A DNA stretch of 64,000 bases from a virus (taxonomy: Duplodnaviria > Heunggongvirae > Uroviricota > Caudoviricetes), in the IMG/VR virus record IMGVR_UViG_2703718869_000013, positions 32,001-96,000 of that record. One strand, 5' to 3'. Numbering within the stretch: position 1 is the first letter of the stretch; each line of letters starts with the position of its first letter. Shown here piece after piece: positions 10,015-53,511 of this stretch. Under the pieces are notes generated by a model. That model saw only the letters and a list, made by a program, of their open reading frames with translations, searched no databases and had not been told where the DNA came from. Made by a program: the position numbers and the translations under genes.

Positions 10015-11058
10015 TTAACCTATTGCTACTGGTTTTAACAAACCAGCATCAAGTAGCTTGCGAGTTAACCACTGCTGGCCTTTACCCGTTAATTGGGGCG
10101 TCAGCCGTATCTGGTAGCCATTTTCATCATCCAGCACCACTTCTTTCACCGTGAAATACCCGGCGTTAATGTACTGCTGGCGCGGTACGTTTTTGCGCGC
10201 ACCAAAAGCCATGAGAATGCCGTTCTGGCGCAACCATGAGAAAAGGGCGTTTTGCTTAAGTCCAACGACCTTTGCAAAGTTCCCGATCAGGATTCCATTA
10301 GCCGCTGATACCCGGTCGGCAAAATCGACTTTAGGGGCTGCGGCCACCAGCTGTTGTTCCAACTGCATTTTCTGTTCTGCCAACTCGGCAGCCAGGCGTA
10401 GAGCTTCTGGTAATGTTTGGGGGATCGATGGGGTAGGGGAGTTTGCCTGCTGCAATTCTTCCAGTTTGTCGATCAGCGAACGGCGGACCGCTTTTGACTC
10501 GCGCGCGGCGACTCGCAAGGCTTGTTTGTAGGTCATGGTGATGACCTCAAAAGAGCGCCCAGCCCTTGTGCCATGGGATTTTGCACTTTTTGTGTAAAAT
10601 TCACCTTCAAGTTCATCGAGTATTTTTTCGATGAATTTATTGTTTCTAACCTCTGGTTCTCCACATAACTTGCGTGCCTCATTGACCATCTTCAACAATG
10701 TTTGGCTGTCGATTGTGTCTCCGGTGTTGGGGATGACATTCACGGCTGGTGTTGGCGTAGCTGACGTAACAGGTGCTGGTTTCTCAACATTCAAATTTTT
10801 ACCGGTCACTCTATGTGCCTCCTTTCTCATTTCTGCTGCCACCGTTGCGTAACGTAGACGTCCTTGTTCAATCAAATAATCCCTGATCTCGGCTATCAGT
10901 AGCCTGTTGATCACAGCCTTATCTGTTCGGGTATAAAAACGCCTGGTTATCATGAAATAGTTGGCAATTGCGCCGGGGATCTCCCGTGTCGGCATACAGG
11001 CAGTATGCAGGGCGATTGCTTCGGCTATGTCATTACGGGTGACGAGAGGTTTTTTCAT
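10015..11058 (-). CDS. ant: Antirepressor Ant (module A), KilAC/ANT C-terminal domain
   Basis: 347 aa; start overlaps icd stop; about 93% identical to Ant of module B by eye; C-terminal ANT domain shared with KilA. Confidence 0.8.
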   Translation of the reverse strand: MKKPLVTRNDIAEAIALHTACMPTREIPGAIANYFMITRRFYTRTDKAVINRLLIAEIRDYLIEQGRLRYATVAAEMRKEAHRVTGKNLNVEKPAPVTSATPTPAVNVIPNTGDTIDSQTLLKMVNEARKLCGEPEVRNNKFIEKILDELEGEFYTKSAKSHGTRAGRSFEVITMTYKQALRVAARESKAVRRSLIDKLEELQQANSPTPSIPQTLPEALRLAAELAEQKMQLEQQLVAAAPKVDFADRVSAANGILIGNFAKVVGLKQNALFSWLRQNGILMAFGARKNVPRQQYINAGYFTVKEVVLDDENGYQIRLTPQLTGKGQQWLTRKLLDAGLLKPVAIG

Positions 11059-11276
11059 AAAACCCCCTGAACGTCGGCAGAGAAGGGGAGGTTCCAGTAA
11101 CTAAGTGAATTGCGCGAGTTAGTTGAAAAACGGGCAGTAAAAATGCAGGGGCCATCAGGCAATTGAGAGCGTGCTTCGTCTTCTGTTGCTGCGATAACGA
11201 AGTGATAGTGGTGTTTTTTACAGGAATAGAAACGCCAGATGAATTCTTGGCGTGCGCAAGGATTGGCATTAACCAT
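11055..11276 (-). CDS. icd: Icd-like small protein (module A), translationally coupled to ant
   Basis: 73 codons, stop overlaps ant ATG; paralogous to 39144-39365, 46770-46991 and 53290-53511. Confidence 0.7.
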   Translation of the reverse strand: MVNANPCARQEFIWRFYSCKKHHYHFVIAATEDEARSQLPDGPCIFTARFSTNSRNSLSYWNLPFSADVQGVL

Positions 11277-11289
11277 AGTTACGGCCTCA

Positions 11290-11480
11290 CTAACAGGTTT
11301 AACAACCTGCTACCCGCTGTCAAACAGGTGGCAGGACGTGACAGGGTTGACAGACTGGCGTTAGTGAAACCAGCAGGCCGAAGCCTCCCCATCACGCCCC
11401 ACCATAATTCGGGCGTAACGCGGTTTACGGACACAAAAATACCGCAATATCGGAAATCTGCGGTTGTCCGCACTAACATT
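11290..11480 (-). ncRNA. c4: c4-like antisense RNA region (module A) with flanking target repeats
   Basis: Conserved structured block with GGCTTCGGCC tetraloop hairpin; motif triples TTTGACAG/CTGTCAA and GTTAGTG/CACTAAC; exact RNA ends not determinable. Confidence 0.55.
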
Positions 11481-11589
11481 CAGGCTGTCAAACCTGGTCG
11501 CAGAATTTGCTACGACGGCAGAACTATAAGCCTGAACGATTAAAAGGTCAATATGATGCGAAAAGATAGCATTCGCGACTTAAAAATAC

Positions 11590-38799: not shown

Positions 38800-38809
38800 T
38801 TTAACCATT

Positions 38810-38843
38810 ATTGCTCTAATAAATTTGATTTATTAGAGCAAAT
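38810..38843. promoter_or_regulatory. Tandem inverted C1 operators (ATTGCTCTAATAAATTT / GATTTATTAGAGCAAAT) upstream of module B
   Basis: First half is a 17/17 match to the operator 17-mer, second half 15/17 in inverted orientation. Confidence 0.75.
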
Positions 38844-38924
38844 AACCTACCATCGAACACGGCTCTATTGATCTCATCGTCGTTCAGGCTTATAGTTCCA
38901 CCGTCGTAGCAAATTCTGCGACCA

Positions 38925-39125
38925 GGTTTGACAGCCTGAATACTTGTGCGGACAACCGCAGATTTCCGATATTGCGGTATTTTTGTGTCCGTAAAACCGC
39001 GTTACGCCCGAATTATGGTGGGGCGTGATGGGGAGGCTTCGGCCTGCTGGTTTCACAAGTGCCAGTCTGTCAACCCTGTCACGTCCTGCCACCTGTTTGA
39101 CAGCGGGTAGCAGGTTGTTAATTCA
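38925..39125 (+). ncRNA. c4: c4-like antisense RNA region (module B) with flanking target repeats
   Basis: Triples GTTTGACAG / CTGTCAACC / GTTTGACAG and ACTTGTG / CACAAGT / ACTTGTGAGG; GGCTTCGGCC hairpin; downstream target overlaps the icd Shine-Dalgarno. Confidence 0.6.
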
Positions 39126-39143
39126 ACTTGTGAGGCCGTAACT

Positions 39144-39365
39144 ATGGTTAATGCCAATCCTTGCGCACGCCAAGAATTCATCTGGCGTTTCTATTCCTGT
39201 AAAAAACACCACTATCACTTCGTTATCGCAGCAACTGAAGACGAAGCACGCTCTCAATTGCCTGATGGCCCCTGCATTTTTACTGCCCGTTTTTCAACTA
39301 ACTCGCGCAATTCACTTAGTTACTGGAGCCTCCCCTTCTCTGCCGACGTTCAGGGGGGTTTATGA
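39144..39365 (+). CDS. icd: Icd-like small protein (module B)
   Basis: 73 codons; stop overlaps ant ATG (ATGA). Confidence 0.75.
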   Translation: MVNANPCARQEFIWRFYSCKKHHYHFVIAATEDEARSQLPDGPCIFTARFSTNSRNSLSYWSLPFSADVQGGL

Positions 39366-40405
39366 AAAAACCTCTCGTCACCCGTAATGACATAGCCGAA
39401 GCGATCGCCCTGCATACTGCCTGTATGCCGACACGGGAGATCCCCGGCGCAATTGCCAACTATTTCATGATAACCAGGCGTTTTTATACCCGAACAGATA
39501 AGGCTGTGATCAACAGGCTACTGATAGCCGAGATCAGGGATTATTTGATTGAACAAGGACGTCTACGTTACGCAACGGTGGCAGCAGAAATGAGAAAGGA
39601 GGCACATAGAATGACCAGTAATAATTTGAATGTTAAAAAACCAGCATCTGTTGCTTCAGCTACGCCATCACCAGCTGTGAATGTTATCTCCAACACTGGA
39701 GATACAATCGACAGCCAGACGCTGTTAAAGATGGTTAATGAGGCGCGCAAGCTATGTGGGGAAAATGAGATCCGCAATAACGATTTTCTCAATAGAATTA
39801 AGGATGAACTTGATGGGGAATTTTACGAAACTTTCGTAAAATCCCATGGCACAAGGGCCGGGCGCTCTTTTGAGGTCATAACCATGACCTACAAACAAGC
39901 CCTGCGAGTCGCCGCGCGCGAGTCAAAAGCGGTCCGCCGTTCGCTGATCGACAAACTGGAAGAATTGCAGCAGGCAAACTCCCCTACCCCATCGATCCCC
40001 CAAACATTACCAGAAGCCCTACGTCTGGCTGCCGAGTTAGCAGAACAGAAAATGCAGTTGGAACAACAGCTGGTGGCCGCAGCCCCTAAAGTCGATTTTG
40101 CTGACCGGGTATCAGCGGCTAATGGAATCCTGATCGGGAACTTTGCAAAGGTCGTTGGACTTAAGCAAAACGCCCTTTTCTCATGGTTGCGCCAGAACGG
40201 CATTCTCATGGCTTTTGGTGCGCGCAAAAACGTACCGCGCCAGCAATACATCAACGCCGGGTATTTCACGGTGAAAGAAGTGGTGCTGGATGATGAAGAT
40301 GGTTACCAGATACGGCTGACGCCCCAATTAACGGGTAAAGGCCAGCAGTGGTTGACGCGTAAACTGCTCGATGCAGGTTTATTAAAGCCTGTAGCGGCTG
40401 AGTGA
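39362..40405 (+). CDS. ant: Antirepressor Ant (module B)
   Basis: 347 aa; ANT/KilAC C-terminal domain; translational coupling to icd. Confidence 0.8.
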   Translation: MKKPLVTRNDIAEAIALHTACMPTREIPGAIANYFMITRRFYTRTDKAVINRLLIAEIRDYLIEQGRLRYATVAAEMRKEAHRMTSNNLNVKKPASVASATPSPAVNVISNTGDTIDSQTLLKMVNEARKLCGENEIRNNDFLNRIKDELDGEFYETFVKSHGTRAGRSFEVITMTYKQALRVAARESKAVRRSLIDKLEELQQANSPTPSIPQTLPEALRLAAELAEQKMQLEQQLVAAAPKVDFADRVSAANGILIGNFAKVVGLKQNALFSWLRQNGILMAFGARKNVPRQQYINAGYFTVKEVVLDDEDGYQIRLTPQLTGKGQQWLTRKLLDAGLLKPVAAE

Positions 40406-40417
40406 TTAAATTAAAAA

Positions 40418-40436
40418 GGCGGCCTTTCGGCCGCCA
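40418..40436 (-). terminator. Hairpin GGCGGCC-tttc-GGCCGCC with T-run on the minus strand
   Basis: Lies between convergent ant (plus) and the head-protein gene (minus); same hairpin recurs after module C ant near 48108. Confidence 0.55.
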
Positions 40437-40480
40437 GTGATTTCAGATACCCCGGCAGCCGCCGGGGTTATTTTTGGTGG

Positions 40481-43800: not shown

Positions 43801-44535
43801 TTATTTTCCAGATAATAACTGATGTTTTGCATATTCACGTGGCGTGCAATTATAATATTGCCTGAACAGGCACACAAAGTACGATGTACTACTAAAGCCA
43901 CAGCTTTCTGATACTTGTTTGACTGAATGATTTTGCTTTAGTAATTTAATAGCGAAAGCCATCCGTGTATCAAGTAATAACTTACTGAAGGAGGTGTTTT
44001 CCAATAATAGTTTTTTCTTTATTAAGCTTTCACTCATGTAGAGATAATCGGTTAGGTCTCTTAGTTTCCAGTGTTTAGATACATCTGAAAGAAATATGCT
44101 GCGCACTTTCCCTGAGAAAGTGGGCATACCAGACGTAAGAAATGCTCTAAAGTTATCAACATCATTAAAAATTGAGAGTAATGAAAAAGTTACTGCCTCC
44201 CTAAAATCAGAATGGATATGATTTTGGTCGCTTATATTATCGATCATCCTGATTAATAAATCAGGATAGGCAAAAGACTTTTTTAGCAAATGTGGACACT
44301 TATCCAGCGATTGGTTTCCAAGGTTGTTGCTGCATAATAAATAGTTTCTTACGGTATTATCATTGAGTTCGAATTCTATATATTTGTCTGAATACATTTT
44401 TAAGCATTCATGCTCAGAATGCTTAAGCAACAACACATCACCGTAATTTAATATCAAGAAATCCTTAAGAAATTGAAAGCTTATAGGTTTCTTTATGAGT
44501 ATGAAGTAACAAACTGCTGACATGGCCACCACCAT
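43801..44535 (-). CDS. AraC/XylS-family transcriptional regulator
   Basis: C-terminal HTH signature VKQVSESCGFSSTSYFVCLFRQYYNCTPREY; very AT-rich gene. Confidence 0.85.
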   Translation of the reverse strand: MVVAMSAVCYFILIKKPISFQFLKDFLILNYGDVLLLKHSEHECLKMYSDKYIEFELNDNTVRNYLLCSNNLGNQSLDKCPHLLKKSFAYPDLLIRMIDNISDQNHIHSDFREAVTFSLLSIFNDVDNFRAFLTSGMPTFSGKVRSIFLSDVSKHWKLRDLTDYLYMSESLIKKKLLLENTSFSKLLLDTRMAFAIKLLKQNHSVKQVSESCGFSSTSYFVCLFRQYYNCTPREYAKHQLLSGK

Positions 44536-44661
44536 TCTAAAGAGGCTTTGAATAAGAATAGAGATAGCCAGGCTCAGAAATCAAGAAGTTGTGTAAAAAT
44601 AAAATTATTGATTTATGTCACATTTTTTGATTGTTTTAATTGATGTTTTTCAATATTATCA

Positions 44662-44685
44662 CAAACAAACAAACAAACAAACAAA
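44662..44685. repeat. (CAAA)6 tetranucleotide repeat next to a TTGACA hexamer
   Basis: Direct reading; about 100 bp upstream of the EAL gene start, in the divergent intergenic region. Confidence 0.9.
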
Positions 44686-44787
44686 TAAATTGACATTTAA
44701 TCTACAAAAGTAGAGTGTAACTCTTGTAAATATAGGGGGCTCGTTATCTGAGCAAAATCAAGCAATTTAAAACTTGAGGGTGGGGAT

Positions 44788-45477
44788 ATGGAAGTTATCT
44801 ACATTGCAGAACCAATCATTTCTACGAGCACGAACAAGTTGATTGCAGTAGAAGTGTTAAGCAGATTTCGCTCCAAAGATGGTGTCGCTCTTCCTACTCA
44901 AAGAGTATTGGGTATGTTTACCAATAAGATGAAGATTAATTTACTTAAATCACAACTTAACACAATAATGAAATACAAGTGTTTTTTTGAACGCCATAAT
45001 ATACTATGTTCTATTAATGTAGATTATGATACATGTATATATATATACAGTAATAAACAAACTCAAGAGTTAATTAAAAACAATAAATTTATAGCTCTTG
45101 AGATATCAGAAAACTACCCTGATTTAAGCGATGAGGATTACGTTATACCCTTTCTCCTGACTTTGACAGACTATGTTTGGCTTGATGATTTTGGAAGTGG
45201 CAACACCACCATGAAAACATTAATTAAAAATAAATACCATGCAATAAAACTTGATAAGGCCTTTTTCCAAGAATATGGGACTAATCCTCATTTTGATGTC
45301 ATTATTAGTAATTTAAAAAAATTATGCCCGAATATCATCGCTGAAGGTGTTGAAAACATTGAGTGTCATAAGCTATCAAAAGGGATAGGGCTATGGGGTG
45401 CCCAGGGATATTTTTTTCCATCAATTCCTCTGGTGGAGATTGAGTCCATAGATAGTAAGTGGCTATCAGATTTATGA
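44788..45477 (+). CDS. Stand-alone EAL-domain protein, predicted cyclic-di-GMP phosphodiesterase
   Basis: EVL(SRF) motif, E..E.NY, DDFGSG, KLDKAF, AEGVE and GAQGYFF motifs all present. Confidence 0.8.
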   Translation: MEVIYIAEPIISTSTNKLIAVEVLSRFRSKDGVALPTQRVLGMFTNKMKINLLKSQLNTIMKYKCFFERHNILCSINVDYDTCIYIYSNKQTQELIKNNKFIALEISENYPDLSDEDYVIPFLLTLTDYVWLDDFGSGNTTMKTLIKNKYHAIKLDKAFFQEYGTNPHFDVIISNLKKLCPNIIAEGVENIECHKLSKGIGLWGAQGYFFPSIPLVEIESIDSKWLSDL

Positions 45478-46175: not shown

Positions 46176-46435
46176 AGCTCCCCCTACAAAAAAGAAAAGC
46201 CACCAGCGGCGGCTTAGCAATACAACTGAAGGTAGCGCCCGGTACTCAGACTGTGCCGTCCATGGAATATTTGAAAAGGGATCCATCCGTACCGGGCGTG
46301 TGATGATTTTGACTGAAGTCACTTGTCAGTTGTCAATTATTTATTATTAAAAATAATATATTTATTAGTGCATACAAATAATACACTAAGTGTGCACATT
46401 GCAACCTCAGAGAGGAAACATTCAACCAGATTGTT

Positions 46436-46469
46436 ATTGCTCTAATAAATTTGATTTATTGGGGCAAAT
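46436..46469. promoter_or_regulatory. Tandem inverted C1 operators upstream of module C
   Basis: ATTGCTCTAATAAATTT exact, followed by inverted degenerate copy. Confidence 0.7.
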
Positions 46470-46549
46470 AAACTACTATTGGACGCCAGACTATTGATCT
46501 TCCTGTTGTTCAGGCTTATAGTTCCTACGCCGTAGCAAATTCTGCGACC

Positions 46550-46752
46550 GGGTTTAGCAGCCTGAATGTACATGCGGACAACCGCAGATTTCCGATATTG
46601 CGGTATTTTTATGTCCGTAAAACCGCGTTACGCCCGAATTATGGTGGGGCGTGATGGGGAGGCTTCGGCCTGCTGGTTTCATGTACGCCAGTCTGCTAAC
46701 CCCGTCACGTCCTGCCACCCGTTTAGCAGCGGGTAGCAGGTTGTTAAACCTG
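46550..46752 (+). ncRNA. c4: c4-like antisense RNA region (module C), different specificity
   Basis: Same scaffold as module B but triples are TTTAGCAG / CTGCTAA and GTACATG / CATGTAC, changed in a compensatory way. Confidence 0.6.
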
Positions 46753-46769
46753 TACATGAGGCCGTAACT

Positions 46770-46991
46770 ATGGTTAATGCCAATCCTTGCGCACGCCCTG
46801 AATTTATCTGGCGCTTTTACTCCTGCCAGAAACGCCACTATCACTTCGTTATTGCACCGACAGAAGATGAGGCACGTTCTCAGCTTCCGGATGCTCCCTG
46901 CATTTTCTCCGCACGCTTTTCTACTGACTCGCGCAATTCTCTCAGTTACTGGTGCCTCCCTGTTAACGCTTCTGTTCAGGAGGGGCTATGA
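46770..46991 (+). CDS. icd: Icd-like small protein (module C)
   Basis: 73 codons; stop overlaps ant ATG. Confidence 0.75.
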   Translation: MVNANPCARPEFIWRFYSCQKRHYHFVIAPTEDEARSQLPDAPCIFSARFSTDSRNSLSYWCLPVNASVQEGL

Positions 46992-48100
46992 GAACGTCAT
47001 TAGTCACCCGTGAAGAGATGATCGAGGCAATTGAACAGCACACAATCTGTATCAGCACCAGGGATATACCAGGCGTTATTGCCAACTACTTCATGATCAC
47101 CAAACAACTTTACCGGAGAAAGGACAAGAACGCGGTTCACCGTATCCTGTTGTCTGATATCCGCGAATACCTGCTCGAACAGGGTCATCTGAATTACGCA
47201 ACCGTCGCAGCCGAAGCACGCAAGGAGGCACACAGAATGAAAGCAACTAACGTTAAATCAGAAAAAATTTATGCACCTTCAGTTCAGGAATCGGAACTGG
47301 TGGTTGTTCAGAATCAGCCGGATGAAATTCCCGTTCTGGAATGGCAGGGAGTACGTGTCGTAACAACCGAAACTCTTGCTAGAGGGTATGGGGTCGATGA
47401 AGCCAATATTCGCAACAATTTGTCTCGCAACCTTGACCGCTTTGAAGAAGGTAAGCATTACTTTCTTCTAACTGGTTTAAAATTAAGAGAATTTAAGAAC
47501 AGAGTAACCGGAAGTTACTCTGTTGGTAAGAACGCCAGAAGCCTTACACTCTGGACAGAGCGCGGCGCTGCACGCATGTCTAAGATCGTGGACACAAATG
47601 AAGCATGGGCATTCTTTGAAAAACTGGAAGACAGCTACTTCCGGCAAAAAGAACAGCAACCGGTCGCAATCCCTCAGACGCTTCCCGAAGCTCTGCGCCT
47701 GGCTGCCGAGCTGGCTGAACAAAAGCAACTTCTGGAACAGAAAGCCCACCAGCTAAATCAGCAGCTGGTGGCCGCCGCCCCTAAAGTCGATTTTGCCGAC
47801 CGGGTATCAGGGGCCAAGGGGATCCTGATTGGAAATTTTGCAAAGGTTGTTGGGCTTAAGCAAAACGCGTTGTTTGCCTGGTTACGGGGGAACGGCATCC
47901 TGATAGCGTCCGGTGGACGTAAAAATGTGCCGTTCCAGCAATACATCAACGCCGGGTATTTCACGGTGAAAGAAGTGGTGCTGGATGATGAAGATGGTTA
48001 CCAGATACGGCTGACGCCCCAATTAACGGGTAAAGGCCAGCAGTGGTTGACGCGTAAACTGCTCGAAGCTGGCTTGTTAAAACCGGTGGCGGCTGAATGA
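46988..48100 (+). CDS. ant: Antirepressor Ant (module C), with extra Bro-N/AntA-like central domain
   Basis: 370 aa; C-terminal ANT/KilAC domain; central WQGVRVVTTETLARGYG..LTLWTERGAARM block. Confidence 0.8.
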   Translation: MRTSLVTREEMIEAIEQHTICISTRDIPGVIANYFMITKQLYRRKDKNAVHRILLSDIREYLLEQGHLNYATVAAEARKEAHRMKATNVKSEKIYAPSVQESELVVVQNQPDEIPVLEWQGVRVVTTETLARGYGVDEANIRNNLSRNLDRFEEGKHYFLLTGLKLREFKNRVTGSYSVGKNARSLTLWTERGAARMSKIVDTNEAWAFFEKLEDSYFRQKEQQPVAIPQTLPEALRLAAELAEQKQLLEQKAHQLNQQLVAAAPKVDFADRVSGAKGILIGNFAKVVGLKQNALFAWLRGNGILIASGGRKNVPFQQYINAGYFTVKEVVLDDEDGYQIRLTPQLTGKGQQWLTRKLLEAGLLKPVAAE

Positions 48101-48339
48101 TTAAAAAAGGCGGCCTTTCGGCCGCCAATGATGTCACGGAGTCTATAATGGCAATGTCTTCGTAGTTGACTAAAGCCACAACTCAATTATAACAATTAAT
48201 TATAGCAATAGTGGCTATTTTATTTATCGCGAATCACATTTTTTCTCTTCAGTACATGTGTGCTATACTCCTTCTTGATTGATTGGATGCGGAATACAAA
48301 CCCGCTCTTTTGTGCAGCCTGGCTCCTTGCCAGGCTTTT

Positions 48340-52168: not shown

Positions 52169-52174
52169 CTTCCA

Positions 52175-53293
52175 TTATTCAGCCGCCACCGGTTTTAACA
52201 AGCCAGCATCGAGCAGTTTACGCGTCAACCACTGCTGGCCTTTACCCGTTAATTGAGGCGTCAACCGTATCTGGTAGCCATCTTCATCATCCAGCACCAC
52301 TTCTTTCACCGTGAAATACCCGGCGTTGATGTACTGCTGGAACGGCACATTTTTACGTCCACCGGACGCTATCAGGATGCCGTTCTCCCGTAACCAGACA
52401 AACAGCGCGTTTTGCTTAAGTCCAACAACCTTTGCAAAATTCCCAATCAGGATCCCTTTAGCTACTGATACCCGGTCGGCAAAATCGACTTTAGGAGCGG
52501 CGGCCACCAGCTGCTGATTTAGCTGGTGGGCTTTCTGTTCCAGAAGTTGCTTTTGTTCAGCCAGTTCGGCAGCCAGGCGTAGGACTTCAGGAAGCGTCTG
52601 GGGGATTGCGATCGGTTGCTGTTCTTTTTGTCGGAAGTAGCTGTCTTCCAGTTTTTCAAAGAATGCCCATGCCTGATCGGTTTCGAGCATTTTAGCGTGG
52701 CGGGCTGCGCCGCGTTCTGTCCAGAGGGTGAGTGAGCGAACATTGCGAGCAATTTTTACAGAGTAGTTTAAAGCTACTCTGTGCTTCAACTCGCGCAATG
52801 ATTCTCCTTCAACTTTGAAAAAGTGCTTCCCTTCAACAAAGCGTACTTTGTTCTCATGATGATTTTGGCGAATACGGATTGTTTCTGTCCCATACCCTCT
52901 CGCAAGAGTCTCGGTTGTCACTACACGCACTCCCTGCCATTCCAGAACGGGAATTTCATCAGACTGATTCTGAACAACCACCAGCTCCGATTCCTGAACT
53001 GAAGGTGCATGAATTTTTTCTAATTTAACGTTATTTGCTTTCATTCTGTGTGCCTCCTTGCGTGCTTCGGCTGCGACGGTTGCGTAATTCAGATGACCCT
53101 GTTCGAGCAGGTATTCGCGGATATCAGACAACAGGATACGGTGAACCGCGTTCTTGTCCTTTCTCCGGTAAAGTTGTTTGGTGATCATGAAGTAGTTGGC
53201 AATAACGCCAGGTATATCCCTGGTGCTGATACAGATTGTGTGCTGTTCAATTGCCTCGATCATCTCTTCACGGGTGACTAATGACGTTCTCAT
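52175..53293 (-). CDS. ant: Antirepressor Ant (module D), with Bro-N/AntA-like central domain
   Basis: 372 aa; paralogous to module C Ant; ANT/KilAC C-terminus. Confidence 0.8.
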   Translation of the reverse strand: MRTSLVTREEMIEAIEQHTICISTRDIPGVIANYFMITKQLYRRKDKNAVHRILLSDIREYLLEQGHLNYATVAAEARKEAHRMKANNVKLEKIHAPSVQESELVVVQNQSDEIPVLEWQGVRVVTTETLARGYGTETIRIRQNHHENKVRFVEGKHFFKVEGESLRELKHRVALNYSVKIARNVRSLTLWTERGAARHAKMLETDQAWAFFEKLEDSYFRQKEQQPIAIPQTLPEVLRLAAELAEQKQLLEQKAHQLNQQLVAAAPKVDFADRVSVAKGILIGNFAKVVGLKQNALFVWLRENGILIASGGRKNVPFQQYINAGYFTVKEVVLDDEDGYQIRLTPQLTGKGQQWLTRKLLDAGLLKPVAAE

Positions 53294-53511
53294 AGTCCCT
53301 CCTGAGCAGAAGCGTTAACAGGGAGGCACCAGTAACTGAGAGAATTGCGTGAATCAGTGGAAAAACGGGCAGAGAAAATACATGGGGCGTCAGGAAGCTG
53401 AGAGCGAGCCTCATCTTCTGTTGGTGCAATAACGAAGTGATAGTGACGTTTTTGGCAGGAGTAAAAGCGCCAGATAAATTCAGGATGAGTTGGGGTAGGG
53501 ATAGTAGCCAT
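53290..53511 (-). CDS. icd: Icd-like small protein (module D)
   Basis: 73 codons from ATG at 53511 with GGAGG Shine-Dalgarno; track ORF continues upstream without a start signal. Confidence 0.7.
   Translation of the reverse strand: MATIPTPTHPEFIWRFYSCQKRHYHFVIAPTEDEARSQLPDAPCIFSARFSTDSRNSLSYWCLPVNASAQEGL

Follow-up and report, generated by a model that had tools for sequence, protein, structure and literature searches.

The tract under study, CAAACAAACAAACAAACAAACAAA, consists of six perfect CAAA units at positions 44662-44685 on the plus strand of the window, i.e., the whole stretch of 64,000 nucleotides that was analysed, and reads as (TTTG)6 on the minus strand. It is directly preceded by ATCA at its 5' side, and the order on the plus strand is ...TCAATATTATCA, (CAAA)6, TAAA and TTGACATTTAATC... 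The tract is intergenic. It is bounded by two ORFs that are 252 bp apart, one on the minus strand (43801-44523 or 44535) and one on the plus strand (44788-45477), and the ATG of the latter is located 103 bp downstream of the tract end. The initial annotation was exact in its coordinates and unit count and correctly placed the EAL start about 100 bp downstream; the genes it had named as AraC-family and EAL neighbours indeed encode the respective Pfam domains on opposite strands. Only its statement that the tract ends immediately before a TTGACA hexamer is off by one degenerate unit, TAAA at 44686-44689. As judged by Tandem Repeats Finder, the array at 44661-44689 (7.2 copies) is the single period-4 array of the 64-kb window. 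No second (CAAA)6, exact or with up to two mismatches, is present elsewhere in the window, and 100 shuffles of it that preserved the dinucleotide composition all lacked (CAAA)6. The array of six perfect units and one degenerate unit represents an improbable perfect tandem repeat, as is characteristic of SSR contingency loci. Among the matches listed for (CAAA)6 in genomes and viral contigs are sequences from Haemophilus, Aggregatibacter, Pasteurella and Brachyspira, and none from Enterobacterales. The features of the locus are as follows, in window positions, with the letters (a) to (d) denoting promoter candidates:

43801-44523, minus strand: gene for an AraC/XylS-family regulator of 240 aa (244 aa from the ATG at 44535), Pfam HTH_18 and HTH_AraC
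44555-44584, minus strand: candidate (c), TTGATT (44584-79), 18-bp spacer and TATTCT (44560-55), hexamers conserved
44576-44620: invariant 45-bp block on the AraC side, GAAATCAAGAAGTTGTG..AAAAATAAAA.TATTGATTT.TGTCA
44579-44591: match AATCAAGAAGTTG to the IHF core consensus WATCAANNNNTTR, one of only four matches in 64 kb
44650-44660, plus strand: TCAATATTATC, one mismatch away from the AggR/Rns-type pattern WWWWWWWTATC, directly to the left of the tract
44655-44663, minus strand: candidate (d), extended -10-like TGTGATAAT, directly abutting the tract and pointing to the AraC-family gene
44662-44685, plus strand: (CAAA)6 tract
44686-44689, plus strand: degenerate TAAA unit, separating (CAAA)6 from TTGACA
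44690-44695, plus strand: TTGACA hexamer, 4 bp from the tract
44690-44696, plus strand: TTGACAT, invariant in all lineages, a -35-like hexamer or operator half-site
44711-44716, plus strand: -10 of candidate (a), TTGACA-15-TAGAGT, top PWM score, short spacer
about 44714-44734: conserved GTGTAAC.C.TGT.AATATA on the EAL side, from the cross-lineage alignment
44725-44733, plus strand: candidate (b), extended -10-like TGTAAATAT, an alternative EAL promoter, conserved everywhere
44755-44767: IHF-like near-copy AAATCAAGCAATT, adjoining the EAL RBS
44788-45477, plus strand: gene for an EAL-only protein of 229 aa, with Pfam EAL, PDB and NCBIfam matches
45315-45321, plus strand: A7 homopolymer in the EAL ORF, A6 in three relatives, which results in a 199-aa protein

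The regulator matches both Pfam profiles above cut-off, and its best PDB matches are CsvR, Rns and GadX, those to CsvR and Rns reaching 1e-20 over residues 42-232. It also gives a full-length match to the NCBIfam YdeO equivalog, but should not be regarded as YdeO itself, because the score of 155 bits is under the cut-off of 348. As judged from these matches, the protein is a member of the Rns/CsvR/GadX/YdeO subgroup of the AraC/XylS family. The EAL protein has STM1697 and YdiV/CdgR as its nearest solved relatives overall and aligns motif by motif with the active PdeL/YahA (EVLxR, N, ExxE, DDFGSG, KLDK, AEGVE, QGY). Every motif of the catalytic signature used here (E(A/V)LxR, N, ExxE, DDFG(T/S)G, KxD, EGVE, QG(Y/F)) is present, whereas YdiV and STM1697 lack DD and EGVE. 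Given the complete set of catalytic motifs, the protein is probably a working c-di-GMP phosphodiesterase, and it may combine or bridge two types, the degenerate anti-FlhD4C2 factors (STM1697, YdiV) and the active EALs. The A6 allele of the homopolymer is found in phage vB_EcoM-Ro157c2YLVW and two draft plasmids (L001, L025 and L036), all belonging to one haplotype, and constitutes a second slippage-type lesion in the EAL cargo gene. In another relative (L024), a TA dinucleotide (window 45036-45037) is missing, which cuts the EAL protein to 87 aa; the deletion falls in an imperfect 16-bp tandem repeat (Tandem Repeats Finder array at 45017-45049).

The region is 99.3% identical to the Punavirus phage vB_EcoM-Ro157c2YLVW, and the host element is a P1-like (Punavirus) phage-plasmid of E. 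coli. As seen from the genes annotated next to it in Ro157c2YLVW, in a P1 isolate and in plasmids, the AraC-EAL module (43801-45477) occupies a cargo slot between lxc/ulx/darB and mat/ref/cre, next to a mat-like gene, where P1 carries res-mod. Its GC content amounts to 33%, and that of the intergenic region to 29%, compared to 46.8% for the window. PLSDB contains 560 plasmid records with the module, most of them with a variant of 87% identity, here termed P1-type. In an index of protein sequences, the EAL protein is listed in 364 blocks and the AraC-family protein in 445, which corresponds to several hundred assemblies. In one relative (L021/L286, a 269-kb contig), the P1-like segment with the module directly adjoins chromosomal genes (yqjK, doxX and GST neighbours), and in E. 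coli ST2747 (L006) a module-bearing P1-like segment lies within the complete chromosome; some of the elements are therefore integrated and not plasmid-borne. Secondary BLAST matches additionally reveal about four diverged copies of an icd-like plus antirepressor (ORF6N/KilAC) module within the window (about 10025-11539, 38808-40445, 46434-48136 and 52174-53484). Literature searches yielded no paper on the AraC-EAL module, the CAAA tract or phage Ro157c2YLVW.

The tract is located at the hinge of the divergent control region, between two conserved halves, and falls in the cross-lineage alignment exactly between the invariant block at 44576-44620 and the invariant TTGACAT. The block on the AraC side contains the match to the IHF core consensus, which overlaps the candidate -35 of the regulator promoter, as well as the inverted motifs AATCAA/TTGATT and an ATGTCA half-site (44615-20), and the EAL RBS forms another invariant block on the opposite side. 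Together with TGACAT, the ATGTCA half-site brackets the tract as an imperfect inverted repeat. AggR-type sites follow the pattern WWWWWWWTATC and a site-to--10 distance rule of 21-23 bp (PMC6392122). The match TCAATATTATC next to the tract may be considered as a speculative candidate for such an Rns/AggR-type site; its TATC motif is not conserved in E. albertii and displaced in P1-type relatives.

The initial annotation had described the region as a divergent promoter region, with TTGACA as a -35 hexamer whose upstream spacing would be altered by any unit change. The divergent gene layout holds, whereas the promoter follows from geometry only: a sigma-70 consensus scan of positions 44400-44900 returned no sites, so TTGACA is not callable as a -35 on consensus grounds. 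Likewise, a unit change does alter the spacing to the invariant TTGACA, but the role of this hexamer as a -35 was not supported, its sole -10-like partner being TAGAGT at 15 bp, which reads AGGAGT in E. albertii and belongs to a segment missing in the P1-type relatives. The four promoter candidates listed above emerged from a heuristic PWM scan, run over n = 0-10 CAAA units (n being the unit number) and combined with cross-lineage conservation. The score of candidate (a) is independent of n. In the P1-type relatives, TTGACA lies exactly 17 bp from TGTAAATAT of candidate (b) because of a 15-bp indel. The lineages of the window, O111, ST2747 and E. albertii have the respective 15-bp segment, TTAATCTACAAAAGT (44697-44711), directly 3' of TTGACAT; the common P1-type variant lacks it and has a much better promoter geometry (17 bp). 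In candidate (c), the spacer varies in sequence and is constant in length across the lineages, and TTGATT-18-TATTCT is likely to represent the core promoter of the AraC-family gene, as judged from its sequence, at about 80-100 bp from the tract. In a hypothetical promoter based on candidate (d), the tract would serve as spacer and -35 region, and the PWM score changes only from 7.7 to 8.7 for n = 2-10. No ON/OFF promoter geometry emerged in the PWM scan, the minus-strand candidates adjacent to the tract changing by at most 1 bit.

Relatives were gathered by exact-protein look-ups (EAL, AraC-family, Mat-like and Ant proteins) in NCBI and ENA contigs, and the CAAA units were counted by script, the intergenic region having first been aligned with that of four relatives. 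The counts across about 45 related sequences are 0, 1, 2, 3, 4, 5, 6, 7 or 8, and contigs encoding identical EAL, AraC-family, Mat-like or Ant proteins contain 2-8 CAAA and 1-2 TAAA units. The comparison of repeat numbers among relatives had been set beforehand as a test of slippage, and the number turned out not to be invariant (2-8 units); such whole-unit polymorphism among close strains is a further characteristic of SSR contingency loci. Three units are present in the near-identical phage vB_EcoM-Ro157c2YLVW, four in the sole IMG/VR match to the right flank, two in the complete E. coli genomes of the lineage (O111 plasmids and the ST2747 chromosome), one in an E. albertii plasmid and none in a P1-type relative, which reads ACAGATAAATAAA. 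Scans with flank patterns gave no matches in GTDB representative genomes and JGI metagenomes and one in IMG/VR. Within the close clade, counted as unique samples, tracts of 3 units are most frequent (about 12), followed by those of 4 (about 8), 5 (four samples), 6 (three, with the window among them), 7 and 8 units (one each). The TAAA unit is doubled to (TAAA)2 in two relatives, which have 7+2 (L014) and 5+2 units (L019). All of the more diverged lineages (19-131 differences) show n = 2, as established for eight fetched sequences and five more judged by span length. Every difference in tract length is a multiple of 4 bp. An assembly artefact was rejected, because the whole-unit alleles lie within 12-40 bp, which is shorter than any read, and were obtained in many independent assemblies with identical flanks.

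The tempo of these changes was derived from flanks of 900 bp on the left and 1700 bp on the right of the tract (2.6 kb). One haplotype with zero differences over the 2.6 kb, represented by 11 sequences, has 3, 4 or 5 units, and the zero-difference haplotype of the window, shared with L014 and L018, has 6, 7 (plus two TAAA) and 8 units, which bears out the earlier proposal of the tract as a substrate for slipped-strand mispairing. Over longer distances, the window and L018 differ by 16 mismatches and one 8-base gap in 18.7 kb aligned, and two further relatives (L021 and L022) by one 8-base gap in 16.8 kb aligned; in both pairs, the tract is the sole indel. Five sequences of the L030-type haplotype have n = 3 only, the central A-type haplotype ranges over n = 3-6 and the B-type haplotype over n = 4-8. 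Longer tracts are more variable, and length is also correlated with descent as given by haplotype; the length-dependent variability fits slipped-strand mispairing, as expected. The tract is a genuine slippage-prone microsatellite which changes in whole 4-bp steps far faster than the flanks acquire substitutions, and no other indel hot spot occurs in up to 19 kb around it. Its instability is length-dependent, with 2 units being stable and 3 or more unstable.

At least about eight length changes have occurred in the clade versus about eight non-recombinant point differences over 2.6 kb, so that mutations in the 24-bp tract are about as frequent as those in the 2,600 flanking bases combined. The per-base mutation rate of E. 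coli is about 2e-10 per generation, and the rate of length changes in the tract can roughly and indirectly be put at 1e-7 to 1e-5 per generation. This would be some 2-3 orders of magnitude below classical phase variation. A contingency locus is expected to switch at about 1e-5 per generation or more, reversibly and within a clonal population. The term identical flanks applies to the 2.6-kb module, because the plasmids are mosaic beyond it, with 1-5 SNP/kb in the wider flanks. In 11 plasmids, the module is identical over 2.6 kb and the surrounding 7-20 kb differ by 1-5 SNP/kb; this greater uniformity of the module suggests either its recent spread by recombination or strong constraint.

We propose, with a probability of about 0.5 and by analogy to nadA of Neisseria meningitidis, that the slippage-prone tract adjusts EAL transcription, and possibly that of the regulator gene, in a graded manner via spacing and helical phase. 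An ancestral (CAAA)2 proto-repeat would have expanded into the present tract within a single sub-lineage of the P1-like E. coli phage-plasmids. The tract lies at the hinge between an AraC side, comprising the IHF-like site, AATCAA/TTGATT, the ATGTCA half-site and the Rns-type TATC site, and an EAL side with the invariant TTGACAT, the conserved TGTAAATAT and the RBS. Each CAAA unit would add 4 bp and about 137 degrees of helical rotation between the conserved blocks, and it is by this shift that tract length would most likely grade EAL transcription, and possibly that of the AraC-family gene: factors bound upstream would be displaced in distance and phase relative to the core promoter, with the -35/-10 spacing unaltered. 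The invariant TTGACA follows the tract after 4 bp, and the upstream block contains an IHF-consensus match, so that the layout may resemble that of nadA; however, the promoter is a candidate, and none was returned by the consensus scan. The estimated rate suggests an evolutionary tuning knob or a slow switch and not a classical high-frequency ON/OFF system. 
Against tuning, the consensus scan returned no sigma-70 promoter, the 15-bp partner of TTGACA is not conserved, and tracts of up to 8 units are short for a tetranucleotide contingency locus. All lengths from 2 to 8 units persist in nature, and none should therefore be strongly deleterious. In addition, the allele counts fall monotonically from n = 3 (about 12, 8, 4, 3, 1 and 1), as neutral stepwise drift would give and with no sign of preferred phases, and two self-contained half-regions could separate at the tract without consequence. 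The same distribution, with every size from 2 to 8 tolerated, argues for a neutral VNTR, i.e., a mutational hot spot devoid of regulatory effect at a tolerant hinge between independent back-to-back promoters, the length of which drifts as in the VNTRs used for E. coli MLVA typing. This is a serious alternative, which we consider credible without favouring it. It is in line with the lack of a consensus promoter across the tract, with the fact that the best-conserved candidates (TTGATT-18-TATTCT in the case of the regulator, TGTAAATAT in that of EAL) do not extend into it from their respective sides, with PWM scores of the tract-adjacent candidates that hardly vary with n, and with an estimated rate which is low for a contingency locus. 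However, an invariant TTGACAT is found only 4 bp away, the extended -10-like element TGTGATAAT directly abuts the tract, and inverted invariant half-sites, ATGTCA and TGACAT, are present on either side. In addition, inserting 4-24 bp, corresponding to non-integral helical turns, into compact divergent control regions of the AraC type usually alters regulation, as is generally known. The phase-variable expression considered in the initial annotation is a hypothesis, which explains the data no better than a slow tuning knob or a neutral VNTR would. A bona fide SSR contingency switch on a P1-family phage-plasmid, with lysogen subpopulations that differ in the expression of EAL and the Rns-like regulator, appears unlikely.

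Classical high-frequency ON/OFF phase variation, in which the cargo would be turned on and off by slippage among the cells of a lysogen culture, is regarded as quite improbable. It might operate through a minus-strand promoter with the tract as spacer and -35 region, or through the Rns/AggR-type site TCAATATTATC, which would need 21-23 bp to the -10 (TAAATT) and reaches this only at n = 5. The length polymorphism among identical modules and the affiliation of the regulator with the Rns/CsvR/GadX group are in its favour, as are the TATC-to-TAAATT spacing of 1+4n, which yields 21 bp at n = 5 as in the AggR-type rule (PMC6392122), and the known phase-variable c-di-GMP phosphodiesterases pdcB/pdcC and sfaY (PMC11868660). 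However, the strong correlation of allele size with haplotype implies a modest rate, n = 5 is not the commonest allele, the tracts comprise 8 units or fewer, and an extended -10 candidate needs no -35, so that n should matter little. The spacing model for n = 5 is given a low probability because of the site not being conserved, the TATC motif differing in E. albertii and being displaced in the P1-type relatives. The tetranucleotide contingency loci known so far are typically longer than 8 units. A switch at the translational or RNA level, with the tract in a small ORF or a structured 5' UTR and 4-nt steps shifting a frame or hairpin, is hardly credible. Two small ORFs of 32 aa (plus strand) and 27 aa (minus strand) do cross the tract in frames that vary with n, an imperfect 22-nt inverted repeat flanks it, and the SSR in the hmw 5' UTR offers a precedent (PMC12721329). 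Yet these ORFs of 27-32 aa are the only ones crossing the tract, are short in every frame, have no RBS of the Shine-Dalgarno type and are not conserved as coding sequences; they were rejected as genes. An RNA hairpin formed by the flanking inverted repeat was also rejected, since the RNA folds no better than shuffles (z = -0.75 for the plus and -1.97 for the minus strand), and Rfam gave no relevant match.

In comparison to known systems, the CAAA tract most resembles, by analogy, an SSR of the nadA type in a distal promoter region or a graded SSR of the hmw type. In core-promoter spacer SSRs, i.e., the TA repeats of hifA/hifB in H. influenzae and the homopolymers of porA, opc and fetA in N. 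meningitidis, slippage alters transcription from a divergent or single promoter. These tracts are located between -35 and -10, whereas the CAAA tract precedes TTGACA on the plus strand and would be part of a spacer only in the hypothetical minus-strand extended -10 promoter, as in the SSRs of the hifA/hifB type. With the VNTR/MLVA loci of E. coli, the tract shares a short tandem repeat with stepwise copy differences between close isolates. Those loci usually have units of 6-18 bp and no proposed function, while the CAAA tract has a 4-bp unit and is located in a compact regulatory region beside invariant motifs. The distal (TAAA)n tract of nadA in N. meningitidis provides a precedent for the modulation of a promoter by tetranucleotide repeats (Metruccio et al., 2009; PMC2791445), for which a switching rate of about 4.4e-4, low, medium and high promoter states and binding of NadR and IHF have been measured (PMC2791445). 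The two tracts consist of A-rich tetranucleotide units and precede the core promoter (here a candidate), outside of -35/-10, in AT-rich, horizontally acquired DNA between regulator-binding regions (here putative) with an IHF or IHF-like site nearby; in both, unit changes shift the spacing of distal elements, and the copy number is polymorphic among strains. Unlike nadA, the CAAA tract is shorter (2-8 units), has a far lower estimated rate and is described here from its sequence, and it resides in E. coli on a phage-plasmid beside an AraC-family regulator, in contrast to the MarR-family regulator of nadA.

The heptanucleotide SSRs of hmw1A/hmw2A in H. influenzae are transcribed and exert their effect via RNase III and a long hairpin in the 5' UTR, natural tracts comprising 11 units or more (PMC12721329). 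They are intergenic like the CAAA tract, and their copy number grades downstream expression with no ON/OFF behaviour (PMC12721329), but the CAAA tract shows no significant RNA structure. Phase-variable c-di-GMP phosphodiesterases are represented by pdcB/pdcC of C. difficile and sfaY/PdeY of E. coli (PMC11868660), which share with the present locus a gene for an EAL-type c-di-GMP enzyme and heritable stochastic variation, the latter being a proposal in the present case. Their switching relies on promoter inversion or, for the sfa operon, on Dam/epigenetic control, with no SSR involved, and none of them is found on a P1-family element.

As for its significance, the hypermutability of the tract is solid, and it is unusual both in E. 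coli and on a P1-family element. Host-adapted pathogens (Haemophilus, Neisseria, Campylobacter) are well known for SSR-driven variation, which to our knowledge has seldom been reported in E. coli, phages or plasmids; P1 itself switches its tail fibres through Cin inversion and not by slippage. In the present case, a tract that is demonstrably hypermutable in nature sits in the control region of an AT-rich cargo made up of an Rns-like regulator and a probable phosphodiesterase, and this AraC-EAL module is frequently carried by P1-like plasmids from STEC and further E. coli. Even if neutral, the tract is a ready-made high-resolution typing marker for P1-like elements, and it constitutes a natural case of length-dependent microsatellite instability in E. 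coli. If a contingency switch were true, slippage during plasmid or lytic replication would create subpopulations differing in c-di-GMP-controlled motility and biofilm formation, and the locus would be the first slipped-strand phase-variable one on a P1-like element and among very few in E. coli. If the tract tunes expression, the phage-plasmid would provide its host with a heritable and quickly evolvable heterogeneity in c-di-GMP signalling.
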